Shown piece by piece: positions 7,301 through 10,300 of a stretch of 27,192 nt of DNA (positions are counted from its first letter, which is position 1; each line of letters opens with the position of its first letter). Made by a program: the position numbers. Source of the stretch: a virus (Duplodnaviria > Heunggongvirae > Uroviricota > Caudoviricetes); IMG/VR virus record IMGVR_UViG_2874920711_000004, positions 1-27,192 of that record; one strand, 5' to 3'.

Positions 7301-10300
7301 ATACTGAAAATACCCTTAAGTTTGCGGCTTTATTACAGGTTCCTGCGGAAGAAATTAATCCAGATCTGAGTGATTTGTTACGCAGTATTCGTACCCACAC
7401 ACCGGGAAACAGGCGTAACCTGTTCGAGAAATATTACGAATATCCGTTACTCTCCTGCGTACAGGCTGGAGCTTTCTCAATGGATGATTTTTCGTACACC
7501 GCAAAGGATGCGATTAAGTGGATCTCCACCACCACAAAAGCCAGTGACAGGTCGTTCTGGCTGGAGGTCAAGGGGCATTCAATGACCGCGCCGCAGGGTG
7601 GTAAACCCAGTTTCCCGAAGGGATGCTGATACTCGTTGACCCTGAGCGGGAGATTGAGGATGGCGATTTTTGCGTGGCCCGAATGAATGGCGATGAATTC
7701 ACCTTCAAACGATTCATTCGTGAGAGCGGTAAAGCGTACCTGGAGCCACTCAACCCACGATTCGACATGATTGAGTGTAACGAAAACTGCCAGTTTGTCG
7801 GAAAGGTCATAAAGTCGCAGTGGAATGATGAGACTTTTGATTGAACTCACAGGATGATATCAATAACCTTGCAGGGAGGCTATTTTATTTCCTTTTTCAG
7901 CGAAAAATCTCCGAGAACCCTCGCCCAATGCGGGCGGGAGCAGTCGCAATCAAGTGAGCCATAAATGAACAAAGACAAATCCTTGACACAACAAGTGGAA
8001 GAAATACTTAGCAAGCAAAAAGTTAGCGAGCAAGGAAAAATGATTCAATCATTAAAGAACATGGGCTTGATCAACAAGCCTGTTTTTACTTTGGCTTATG
8101 GACCAGATATTACAACCTGCCAAATGCACCAATAACAAAACCCGGCCTTGGTGCCGGGTTTTGTTTGCCTCCTGCTCGCCCACCATTTACCAGTGCGCCA
8201 TAAATTCCCCATTCTTCGGCGGTGAGGATGTCAAAGACGAAGGGAACATTAAGCCCCTGTGTGATGGTTGACTTCTTTTTCCAGCGCCTTATTAACAAAG
8301 GCGTTCAGTGATAAATCTTCTTCCATCGCCATTTCAGCGACCCGACGATGCAGTTCTGGATCAAGTCTGACGTTAAACACACCTTTAAACGGGGTATCAG
8401 GCTCCTTTCCATCCTCCACACAAGACTGTAAATACAGCTCAACCGATGTCTTAAACTCCTGTTCCAGTTCAGCTAATGTAGAAGCCTCATAAGTTACCAG
8501 GTCTCGAATAAACGCCAGTTTTCCGTACAGGATATTATTTTCAAAATCTGGTTCTACTGTACCTAAATATCCTTTATATTTTAGATGATTCATAATACCC
8601 CAGCCTCTTTCAGATTCTGTTTAATCGCTTTCAGCGTTCCACCTTTAATATAACTTTCTGGATGTGGGCGATGCATTAATATGGTGTGGTTGATTTCAGC
8701 ATTGAAAAACCGCACTCTTGAGCCCTGCATTTCCTTTTTGACATATCCCAGAGAGGAAAACAAAACGACCAACTCATCCCATTCAAACGTTTTTTTACTG
8801 TTTAAAAACTTTTCCAGTAGCTTATCTGCTTTCCCCATACCCACATAATCTCATCTTCGCTACATTGCAACTAATTATAGTTACAGGCGATGTTTTTGTC
8901 AAAAGCCACCAAGCCCGCTGGGTTCTCTTTGACTGTTCACTGCTTTTCTTAGTGTTATCAGGGGTTCCCTCACACCAAATCTAACACAGAGTAACCGGCC
9001 TCAGCGCCGGTTTTTCTTTGCGCATCCTCCATAACTCACCACCTGCATTATCCTCGCTTATATTTTTTACATAAATAAATTAATCTAAAAATCAATCACA
9101 TAGATTAAAATTAAATTATTTGTCTTACTATTAACTGTGATCAGTTGCGCTTATTATATTTTACCCAAGCCAGAAACATCGCGCCCTGACACAGGGCTAC
9201 ATAAATCAGTCGTACGGCGCGACTTAACCCGCCGCAAAATGCTCTTTAACAATCTGGAGCTTTACAGCGTCAATGACCGGTTTAGACCCCTACACGTAAA
9301 CGTGCTGTATCATCGGGTGCGATCCGGTCGATGAGAGAGTATCCCCGCGCGAGAGCGAGAACGGCGTGAGAACGGGCAACACTGGCAGGAAGTTGGCGCT
9401 GACCAATACAGGGAATGTTTTGGGGTGCAGGCGGCACCGCCAAAGCATTTCCGAGAAAGGACGATATTGACTGCGTGTGATGTCGGGGCTATATTTGGCG
9501 AACACCTCATAAAACGGGTGCCGGGATTAGCACCCCGAAAGTTACTCGAGCGCATAACCGCGCTGAAGCGGTTTTTTTATGCGTAATGCACAGCCACATT
9601 CAAATTATGGTGAGGCGTGCGGGGCAGCCGCAAGGCTGGCCGGGTTCTCGAGTGACCGGTAGTGCTAACCCTGTGCGTCTCACCACCCATGAGATTAGCA
9701 CCTCTGGTGGTGAGTTAATTAACTTATCACTTGAGGATGTCATTATGGCTACTACCCTTTCTCACCCTGACGTAACCATCGAAAATGGTCGCGCCGTCAC
9801 TACTTCTATTTCGATTGCTGAGTTTTTTGGCAAGCAGCATCACCATGTTGTTCAGAAAATAGAATCCCTCGAATGCTCTGAGCAATTCTTAACCCGCAAC
9901 TTTTCGCGGGTTAAATTCGAACACCGAGGCAATACCTATAACGCCTACCAAATCACCAAAAACGGCTTCGTTTTTCTGGTGATGGGCTTCACCGGCAAAA
10001 AAGCAGCTGCATTCAAGGAAGCCTACATTGCTGAATTCGATCGCATGGAAAAACAACTATGGGAACAGAAACAACTGGCCCTGTCTTCTCCTGCGATGAA
10101 TATCAATTTCCCTTTATCGTGGTTTTCAGAGCATCACCCCTATGCCACGATGAACTATGTTGATAGAAATACATTGCAGCTTGATACCTCCGTCTTATTC
10201 GACATGCCAAGCCCTGCAATGCGCATATTTAATGAATTACGTCGTAACGGCTATAACGTCGATGCGGCTGTCGCCGAATTTAACGCCTTCAAGCATCTGA

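Follow-up and report, generated by a model that had tools for sequence, protein, structure and literature searches.

Between cI and pL, lambda carries rexAB. Which cargo occupies the corresponding interval in the present lambda-like prophage, and what role does it have there? An earlier note on the window (the whole stretch of 27,192 nucleotides of viral DNA analysed here) had placed a hicA-hicB toxin-antitoxin pair in this slot. In our reading, the pair is very probably a genuine, autoregulated type II HicAB operon of the HicA^O B subfamily, independently transcribed within the cI-oL/pL slot of a decayed lambdoid remnant. The locus as such is already known and ordinary: RefSeq annotates its genes as HicA and HicB, and a plasmid twin has been characterised. 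The following features were located in and around the slot:

7127–7844, plus strand: pseudogene of the cI repressor (LexA/S24 family), left border of the slot
7965–8135, plus strand: ORF of 56 amino acid residues (ORF56), in the same direction as cI
8134–8165, both strands: bidirectional intrinsic terminator t1, between ORF56 and hicB
8249–8593, minus strand: antitoxin/repressor gene hicB, 114 aa
8590–8838, minus strand: toxin gene hicA with an ATG start, 82 aa
8866–8885, minus strand: predicted HicB operator, an 8-4-8 palindrome (TGTAACTA-TAAT-TAGTTGCA) overlying the -10 box
8902–8874, minus strand: predicted hicAB promoter, TTGACA-17-TATAAT
8924–8991, plus strand: degraded 3'-terminal remnant of a former cargo gene, the partner of a Panacea-domain gene
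8993–9012, plus strand: terminator t2, which closes the slot on the right
9114–9160, plus strand: candidate oL/pL, a repeat of the pR/pRM region with a promoter-like site

The slot between cI and pL

The prophage is a decayed lambda-like remnant in a Shigella chromosome. Relative to intact homologues of 239 aa, its cI has lost single nucleotides at two places (one G of the G5 run at 7256–7260, leaving G4, and a T at 7616); Peptidase_S24 was matched on two fragments, and tblastn recovered the protein in three frames. The G4 allele is common to three of eight Shigella loci, in which cI, rha, helicase, gamL and recT are broken to a varying extent. In the window prophage, cI, helicase and recT are broken and hicAB is intact. 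A full-length hicA was present in all eight Shigella loci, a biased sample composed of loci found via an exact HicB match.

The right side of the slot is based on the putative assignment of oL/pL, which we infer from a stretch of 21 nt (9114–9134) with 81% identity to 7093–7113 in the pR/pRM region and from a promoter-like site at 9131–9160. The latter is conserved in phage Lyz12581Vzw (-35 element TTGACT), and the pL leader that follows is also present in phi80.

Sister prophages with the same or a near-identical cI hold other cargo at this place, and the comparison of the slot across relatives that the earlier note had proposed thereby supported the location it had given. Four alternative slot contents were found among the relatives. 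Phage Lyz12581Vzw carries a type II restriction-modification (RM) system and a Panacea pair, JNEC-KY204 a TM protein, hicAB and the Panacea pair, and 2015C-3121 an SDH protease, ORF56 and hicAB. These contents support the view that hicAB occupies a variable cargo slot of a lambdoid prophage with a Stx-phage-like backbone. A DNA search of the phage collection matched only the t2 segment (in Stx2a phages), and the hicAB of the window was found in no sequenced phage of that collection.

As a counterpart of rexAB, the pair might have anti-phage abortive infection as its main function, infection by another phage freeing HicA and shutting the cell down. An anti-phage role of hicAB is possible; as the main function we consider it unlikely. 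In its favour, the slot of a sister phage with near-identical cI holds genuine defence cargo, namely the RM system of type II, whose genes PADLOC matched strongly; rexAB lies at this position in lambda, and a different hicAB takes its place in the lambdoid phages mEp234 and HK106; and Gerdes proposes defence roles of HicA from gene context. However, no model of PADLOC-DB 2.0 matched HicA, HicB or ORF56 at E values up to 0.01. Nor did PADLOC match the other slot cargo (SDH protease, TM protein and Panacea pair), its matches being confined to the sister-phage RM genes. Moreover, according to a review, experimental phage defence has been shown for no HicAB system. The removal of another plasmid subfamily (hicA^T B) left phage resistance unchanged, and the prophage-encoded HicAB2 of Pseudomonas putida affected neither phage defence nor prophage stability. 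The HicB of the other plasmid subfamily persisted in lysate for 12 h (Lin et al., Nucleic Acids Res 2025, PMC11878559), a further argument against the usual trigger by a labile antitoxin.

The segments flanking hicAB retain parts of other cargo. ORF56 was confirmed as co-oriented with cI and matched phrog_28875 (E 1e-30); its relatives form only three protein clusters, all from Enterobacteriaceae. In ten of ten other loci ORF56 begins directly after a 300-aa SDH_protease gene located downstream of cI, and hicAB is absent from all ten. The homologous segment extends over 7952–8181, and t1 lies within this segment, which is common to loci without hicAB. ORF56, with a dN/dS of about 0.2 derived from 13 substitutions only, is the leftover of a different cargo module (SDH protease/ORF56). 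A tblastn search of ORF56 against the phage collection yielded no match. Weak matches with the N-terminus of ArgR (E 0.003–0.007) were far under the thresholds and were discarded as functional evidence.

Terminator t1, which corresponds to the bidirectional terminator described earlier, consists of a perfect 13-bp stem (8134–8146/8153–8165) and a loop of 6 nt, with an A-run and a T-run flanking the stem. Its folding energies of -22.5 kcal/mol (plus strand) and -24.7 kcal/mol (minus strand), with z at about -4, were equalled by no shuffle. The automatic terminator scan missed t1 because the flanking runs lengthen the stem. Terminator t2 is composed of a 7-bp stem followed by UUUUUCUUU, has a weak tail on the minus strand and is conserved among Stx2a phages as well as in further prophages of E. 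coli; the segment of t2 and the pL leader was matched in 287 E. coli genomes. From position 8933 onwards, across t2 and the pL region, the DNA is 92% identical to the Stx2a phage Lyz12581Vzw. In a tblastn search, gp42 of this phage aligned with two reading frames of the window, interrupted by a stop codon, which places the degraded cargo gene to the left of t2; the complete Panacea gene pair adjoins hicAB in E. coli JNEC-KY204. A permissive Rfam search of 7800–9500 gave only sub-threshold, terminator-driven matches. Taken as a series, the sister prophages indicate that the cI-pL slot both swaps and stacks cargo, with gene stubs and terminators left at the joints.

The toxin HicA and the antitoxin HicB

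The identity of both proteins, for which a domain search had been proposed as the test, was established by Pfam matches above threshold and by structural models whose best matches were HicA and HicB structures. HicB scored 71 bits against PF05534 (cut-off 21) and matched phrog_9151 (E 1.5e-50), with weaker matches to Arc-like repressors. It consists of an N-terminal partial RNase-H-like domain and a C-terminal ribbon-helix-helix (RHH) domain. The AF2 model (pLDDT 88.5) displays beta strands, a long helix, a linker and two helices; Foldseek ranked the HicB structures 6g26 (chains A/B), 2dsy and 4p78 best, also retrieved 6g1c and 6u0i, and matched the C-terminus with CopG (1ea4). Score and fold together place the protein in the HicB family of the RHH type (PF05534), and its identity to the founding HicB of Haemophilus influenzae (Q9LA69) is about 61%.

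HicA scored 45 bits against PF07927 (cut-off 27), with positions 1–58 of the 58 profile positions covered, and matched phrog_8887, annotated as 'toxin' (E 9e-35). WP_000513533.1, an annotated HicA from E. coli strain 48, is 100% identical to it. An alternative in-frame GTG start is located at 8844. A sequence search of the PDB with HicA alone found no match, and a family-profile search reached HicA structures only at E values of about 0.3; fold comparison was needed because neither search gave a significant result. The AF2 model (pLDDT 90.4) comprises an extra N-terminal helix of about 20 aa, a helix at residues 20–29, three strands and a helix at residues 66–79, and hence contains the dsRBD-like alpha-beta-beta-beta-alpha fold expected of the HicA family. 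The top three Foldseek matches in the PDB were the HicA structures 1whz and 6g26 (chains E and F), with a probability of 1.00 and TM scores of 0.64–0.72 normalised to the target.

The catalytic histidine of the G-S-H motif is not present in the window HicA in the alignment to HicA of Burkholderia pseudomallei (4c26). The motif reads G39-S40-R41, and Arg41 aligns with the catalytic His24 (H24A) of that protein. This histidine is a trait of all biochemically characterised HicA proteins and lies outside the Pfam definition; according to the review it is essential in HicA of B. pseudomallei and Streptococcus pneumoniae and conserved in the E. coli and Sinorhizobium meliloti proteins. The canonical RNase mechanism is therefore not simply transferable to the window HicA. 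Four grounds nevertheless place the protein with HicA: homology, fold, the presence of a cognate HicB and the toxicity published for the same-subfamily HicA from the IncX4 plasmid p14EC007a. An hhalign comparison of the family profiles with E. coli K-12 HicA and HicB aligned the C-terminal HP..IK stretch alone and left the active site uninformed.

The exchange of His for Arg, at a position reported as essential in two species, could mean that HicA is a catalytically dead or non-toxic relic and the pair an inert passenger. We regard this as very improbable, as Arg is a feature of the clade, present at position 41 in 124 of 141 cluster representatives (His in 1 of the 141) beside a nearly invariant H-[KR]-P-H-P motif, and as the same-subfamily HicA of p14EC007a is reported to be toxic (PMC11878559). 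Between the prophage and plasmid copies, moreover, dN/dS is 0.06 for hicA, a strong constraint, and 0.04 for hicB; an equally constrained hicB is expected where a toxin still has to be neutralised. By these ratios hicAB is under strong purifying selection. Two antisense ORFs within hicAB (8268–8492 and 8681–8848, plus strand) were rejected, since this selection acts on the minus-strand frames. A further proposal is that the clade with G-S-R and H-[KR]-P-H-P poisons cells via a non-canonical active site or mechanism and that its intact survival in Shigella remnants with decaying repressor, replication and recombination genes reflects a real selective role, which would then lie either in addiction of the surrounding DNA or in defence against phages, exerted from the position of rexAB. 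We hold this combined proposal to be doubtful. Nonetheless, a HicA clade without the textbook catalytic histidine poses a cheap and testable biochemical question.

Expression and predicted autoregulation

The genes hicA and hicB are arranged in tandem with the toxin gene first. They share a 4-nt overlap (ATGA), hicA ending at 8590 and hicB starting at 8593, so that there is no intergenic space. The earlier description of the pair as convergent hence does not apply to the two genes with respect to each other, but it holds for the pair as a unit, which faces cI and ORF56.

The perfect promoter reported previously was recovered with 12 of 12 consensus matches, and no second site with at most one mismatch to the consensus occurs in the 27-kb window. 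Shuffled versions of the window contained on average 0.13 such sites, and at least one site occurred in 11 of 100 shuffles. By consensus match alone, the predicted promoter is thus mildly unusual; what makes it convincing is its conservation in homologous loci, as the -35 sequence TTGAC and the 17-nt spacing are kept in all eight aligned loci. The palindrome over the -10 box, with arms at 8866–8873 and 8878–8885, is a candidate HicB operator. The 20-nt palindrome block is invariant among the prophage, IncX4 and IncI2 copies, whereas the spacer and the 5'UTR diverge. The Photorhabdus and Salmonella orthologues retain the arms of the palindrome and vary in its central 4 nt (eight loci compared). 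Promoter and putative palindromic operator belong to the hicAB module and are no phage adaptation, an assignment made because the plasmid copies have the same promoter. The conservation is evidence of one hicAB unit common to plasmids and prophages, promoter and operator included.

That hicAB is wired into the lysis-lysogeny circuit, under cI control or by read-through from pRM or pL and with a part in induction or immunity, is hardly tenable: its position inside the immunity region and the hicAB of mEp234, co-directional with cI and upstream of the terminator Timm so that co-transcription with cI is possible, would be in line with it, but the window pair is opposite in direction, is bracketed by t1 and t2, shares promoter and operator with plasmid copies outside any phage context, displays no cI-operator-like repeat overlapping its promoter and persists where cI is a pseudogene.

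For the independently transcribed, autoregulated operon, the following mechanism is proposed. Judging from sequence and conservation, hicA and hicB would be transcribed leftward from the module's own consensus sigma-70 promoter, and the ATGA overlap probably couples their translation. A HicB dimer may bind the palindrome through its RHH domains and repress the operon, as suggested by the conservation of the palindrome and by characterised HicB proteins. By homology, the N-terminal partial RNase-H-like domain of HicB would cover HicA and block its RNA-directed toxicity. Terminator t1 is likely to stop both hicAB transcription and the opposing transcription of cI and ORF56 before either enters the other unit. 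A weak hairpin at 8241–8258 is an alternative candidate for the end of the leftward transcript.

Role and relation to known systems

Most likely, the role of hicAB is selfish: by addiction or competition, the module retains itself together with its DNA neighbourhood. [quoted passage not shown]

The closest relatives of the window pair are the HicA^O B systems of IncX4 plasmids (pJIE143/p14EC007a type), with identities of 96% for HicA and 95% for HicB; these values refer to typical IncX4 copies, and the link to the assayed p14EC007a is drawn via subfamily features and these copies. At the DNA level the identity is about 90.6% over 8240–8904. The subfamily is defined by a toxin-first order, overlapping ORFs, the absence of an internal terminator between hicA and hicB and a high identity to IncX4 (PMC11878559), and the window pair shows all of these features. 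Toxin-first order, the 4-nt ORF overlap, the -35 element and the 20-nt -10/palindrome block are the same in the IncX4 copies. In contrast to these copies on conjugative plasmids, the window hicAB resides in a chromosomal prophage slot, has a different 5'UTR and promoter spacer and borrows its downstream terminator from the adjoining ORF56 segment. With its toxin gene in first place and the C-terminal RHH domain of HicB, the operon belongs to class 4 in Gerdes' scheme.

Characterised HicAB systems of E. coli K-12, B. pseudomallei, Yersinia pestis (HicA3B3) and S. pneumoniae share the folds, the toxin-first order and a DNA-binding C-terminus of HicB, which is of the RHH type in B. pseudomallei and S. 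pneumoniae as in the window. The window HicA differs from the solved HicA proteins in the lack of a significant sequence match, the extra N-terminal helix and the Arg in place of the catalytic His.

Lambdoid immunity-region hicAB has reportedly been on record since 2007, when Degnan and colleagues are said to have described the pairs of mEp234 and HK106. These pairs (GenBank EF120460/EF120461) likewise lie between cI and oL/pL, and their HicA falls into the same long-HicA clade, with an N-terminal extension, no GSH histidine and an HxPHP motif. Nevertheless, they represent a different hicAB: HicA is only 34% identical, HicB is longer (152 aa), and the genes are co-directional with cI, with a further ORF after the pair, whereas the window pair has the opposite orientation and a promoter of its own. 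Lambda rexAB shares with hicAB the genomic position and the logic of a cargo expressed in the lysogen, and no homology. While rexAB is co-transcribed with cI, the window hicAB runs in the opposite direction and is insulated by terminators.

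The hicAB module and its promoter

The interval 7844-9019 runs from the stop codon that ends a cI-like gene to just beyond an intrinsic terminator. The earlier note had placed here a convergent hicA-hicB pair with a perfect consensus promoter, a small ORF co-oriented with cI and a bidirectional terminator. Each of these elements was located, the pair at 8249-8838 on the minus strand; its arrangement was described incorrectly, as the two genes lie in tandem and it is the pair as a unit that converges on cI and the small ORF (ORF56).

Features of the cargo slot
7965-8135, plus strand: ORF56, 56 aa
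8134-8146 / 8153-8165, both strands: terminator t1, a perfect 13-bp hairpin between an A-run and a T-run
8249-8593, minus strand: hicB, 114 aa
8590-8838, minus strand: hicA, 82 aa; a GTG in the same frame lies at 8844
8902-8874, minus strand: hicAB promoter, TTGACA-17-TATAAT
8924-8991: frameshifted end of the partner of a Panacea-domain gene, the only part kept of a gene pair found at 5851-6701 and 9703-10553 of two relative loci (L018 and L017, own coordinates)
8993-9012, facing the plus strand: second terminator, t2

An ATGA is common to the hicA stop and the hicB start (4-nt ORF overlap). In the domain searches that had been proposed, both products scored above the Pfam cut-offs, HicA with 45 bits against HicA_toxin (cut-off 27) and HicB with 71 bits against HicB (cut-off 21), and they affiliate to the PHROGs families phrog_8887 ('toxin') and phrog_9151 ('HicB-like antitoxin'), respectively. 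HicB is ~61% identical to the founding HicB of Haemophilus influenzae. A sequence search of the PDB yielded no close solved relative for either protein, and their structures were therefore modelled. The HicA model (pLDDT 90.4) has an alpha-beta3-alpha core preceded by an extra N-terminal helix; its three best PDB matches are all HicA structures (1whz, and chains E and F of 6g26). The HicB model (pLDDT 88.5) consists of a beta-sheet and a long helix followed by a linker and two C-terminal helices. Its best matches are HicB of B. pseudomallei (6g26), TTHA0281 (2dsy) and HicB3 of Y. pestis (4p78), and the best counterpart of its C-terminal part is the CopG repressor (1ea4).

According to a review, the HicA toxins that have been characterised require the histidine directly following a Gly-Ser pair. 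The corresponding motif of the window HicA is G39-S40-R41, R41 aligning with residue 24 of HicA from B. pseudomallei. A full-library profile search with HicA returned 1526 cluster representatives; among the 141 full-length sequences within the best 150 of these, the position of R41 is occupied by Arg in 124 and by His in one, and the motif H-[KR]-P-H-P (window H56-P60) is nearly invariant. Judged from this alignment, the missing catalytic histidine is a trait of the whole long-HicA clade and not of the window locus. The long-HicA clade probably uses residues other than the canonical histidine, because HicA of plasmid p14EC007a, from the same subfamily, was reported as toxic (PMC11878559). HicA of phage mEp234 likewise lacks the histidine and reads GSG.

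Apart from the hicAB promoter, no site in the window differs from the consensus at one position or fewer; shuffles contained on average 0.13 such sites, and 11 of 100 had at least one. When upstream regions of prophage, IncX4 and IncI2 hicAB copies were aligned, the -35 element was invariant, as was a block of 20 nt at window 8866-8885 (TGTAACTATAATTAGTTGCA), while spacer and 5'UTR diverged. The consensus promoter is, on sequence grounds, part of the hicAB module. The block is an 8-4-8 palindrome (TGTAACTA / TAGTTGCA) centred on the -10 box, its arms complementary at 7 of 8 positions. Photorhabdus and Salmonella orthologues (HicA identity 71-76%) retain the arms, mostly as a perfect TGTAACTA...TAGTTACA, and vary in the four central bases (TAAT, TTGT, CTGT, TTAT). 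Conserved half-sites around a free centre have the appearance of an operator, which suggests the palindrome as the binding site of a HicB RHH dimer; the consensus promoter would be kept down by autorepression.

Exchange of cargo between cI and pL

In lambda, rexAB occupies the position between cI and oL/pL. The claims that the cassette lies in this interval and that the interval is a cargo hotspot were both supported by comparison with sister prophages, relatives with other contents in the slot. The Stx2a-converting phage Lyz12581Vzw, with a cI near-identical to that of the window, carries after cI a type II methyltransferase and a BsuBI-type endonuclease, followed by a Panacea-domain gene with its partner and, after these, by the t2 of the window and a promoter region of 92% identity. 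In E. coli JNEC-KY204, whose cI protein is the same as in E. coli strain 48, cI is followed by a small membrane protein, then by hicBA, inverted as in the window, and by a complete Panacea pair ahead of the early-left genes. In E. coli 2015C-3121 the cI is a different one, and after it come a membrane protein, an SDH-type ClpP-like protease, ORF56, t1, hicBA and early-left genes. The order cI-ORF56-t1-hicBA-t2 of the window recurs in three E. coli genomes (strain 48, FHI_NMBU_10 and JNEC-KY176). This synteny supports the cI-pL placement of hicAB and, given the differing cargo (type II restriction-modification genes included), the slot is therefore a real exchange hotspot, in which hicAB is one of several interchangeable and stackable inserts. 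The full cassette is rare, with at least 80% query coverage in 8 of 5426 complete E. coli genomes; 479 of its 517 matching places are on plasmids.

In each of ten loci, which represent at least five cI types, ORF56 comes directly after an SDH-protease gene; hicAB is absent from all ten. By this comparison the window ORF56 is the stub of another cargo module, and t1 (folding energy -22.5 kcal/mol on the plus and -24.7 kcal/mol on the minus strand) came along with it. The complete cargo comprises a 300-aa SDH-type ClpP-like serine protease (PF01972, NfeD-like N-terminus) and, immediately after it, ORF56. It is widespread directly 3' of at least five cI types in lambdoid and P22-like prophages, and sits at ~4098-5171 in each of the ten loci (L006-L015; window counterpart 7952-8181). 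PADLOC models gave no match for the SDH protease or ORF56. A further remnant, at 8924-8991, consists of the terminal ~70 nt of the Panacea-partner gene with a frameshift; in the Stx2a phage and JNEC-KY204 this slot holds the Panacea-domain gene (SocA-like antitoxin) together with its partner of 126 aa.

The ORF56-t1 segment is flanked by a 14-nt direct repeat, AGTG(A/C)GCCATAAAT, at 7953-7966 and 8192-8205, the first copy spanning the junction of the SDH-protease gene end with the ORF56 start codon; the repeat may mark a recombination joint or a past duplication. A weak terminator-like hairpin of 5 bp with the tail TCGTCTTT spans the hicB stop codon (8241-8258, minus strand), at the edge of the plasmid-shared segment and upstream of t1, and could be the module's own terminator.

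The host prophage and its early-left region

The host prophage is, as read from its gene content, a decayed remnant. Positions 5600-11593 are 100% identical to the Shigella chromosome CP026824.1, and the exact HicB sequence, labelled 'MULTISPECIES [Shigella]' (S. dysenteriae, S. boydii), occurs on 163 contigs. The cI gene (7127-7844) has two 1-nt deletions, the DEAD-box helicase gene (4423-5878) is spread across three frames, and recT is in two pieces, the C-terminal one now lying inverted at 2556-3158, ~8 kb from the remainder at 11278-11628. The replication-distal ninG, ninH and a primase-like gene are missing from the prophage. IS3-family elements lie nearby. Three of eight Shigella loci share the G5-to-G4 frameshift of cI, which is therefore probably a genuine mutation and not an error of sequencing. 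In all eight, chosen via an exact HicB match so that the count is biased towards retention, hicA is full-length, and cI, rha, helicase, gamL and recT are variously broken; the retention of hicA amid decaying neighbours is suggestive.

Beyond the slot, 21 nt at 9114-9134 are similar to a stretch of the pR/pRM region; they overlap a promoter-like site (9131-9160). On its 3' side a boxA-like TGCTCTTTAACAA (9241-9253), read from sequence, sits inside a non-coding leader of ~190 nt (9240-9425). This leader is present in many E. coli prophages and ~94% identical to a phi80 prophage stretch in DH5-alpha/NEB5-alpha, there too after cI plus cargo; it is probably a pL leader or nutL region. Two Rfam families, the Hfq-binding sRNA isrK and the C4 antisense RNA, match above their gathering scores at 9502-9578 and 9603-9690, directly upstream of a Rha/Ash-family ORF (9746-10383) at the start of the early-left operon; this layout resembles the RNA-based antirepressor control of P1 immI and Gifsy-1 isrK-anrP. 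Well away from the cassette, 18087-18170 matches sRNA-Xcc1 above gathering score (78 bits).

Function and comparison with known systems

The segment 8240-8904 is ~90% identical to hicAB of hundreds of conjugative plasmids, mostly IncX4 (~30-34 kb) and some IncI2. With one IncX4 copy, HicA shares 96% and HicB 95% protein identity, and the 4-nt overlap is the same. Values of dN/dS between prophage and IncX4 copies (0.06 for hicA, 0.04 for hicB) indicate strong purifying selection on both genes. The overlapping-ORF type was named HicA^O B by Lin et al. 2025 (PMC11878559). [quoted passage not shown]

That the window hicAB represents a working, autoregulated toxin-antitoxin system is well supported. 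This support does not extend to its biological role, for which selfish persistence or competition ranks as the likeliest candidate, followed by abortive infection. PADLOC models gave no match to HicA or HicB; a review notes no experimental demonstration of phage defence for any HicAB, and a functional prophage HicAB of P. putida conferred neither stability nor defence.

The call of the earlier note was correct. The module is, however, already annotated, with WP_000513533.1 matching the window HicA exactly; its counterpart on plasmids has been characterised, and its placement has published lambdoid precedent. In Gerdes' scheme its architecture is that of class 4, in which the HicB of hicAB is of the RHH type. 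The immunity regions of the lambdoid phages mEp234 and HK106 (GenBank EF120460, EF120461) annotate hicA and hicB between cI and oL/pL. There hicAB runs the same way as cI, whereas the window pair runs opposite; their HicA is only 34% identical to that of the window, yet belongs to the same long-HicA clade.
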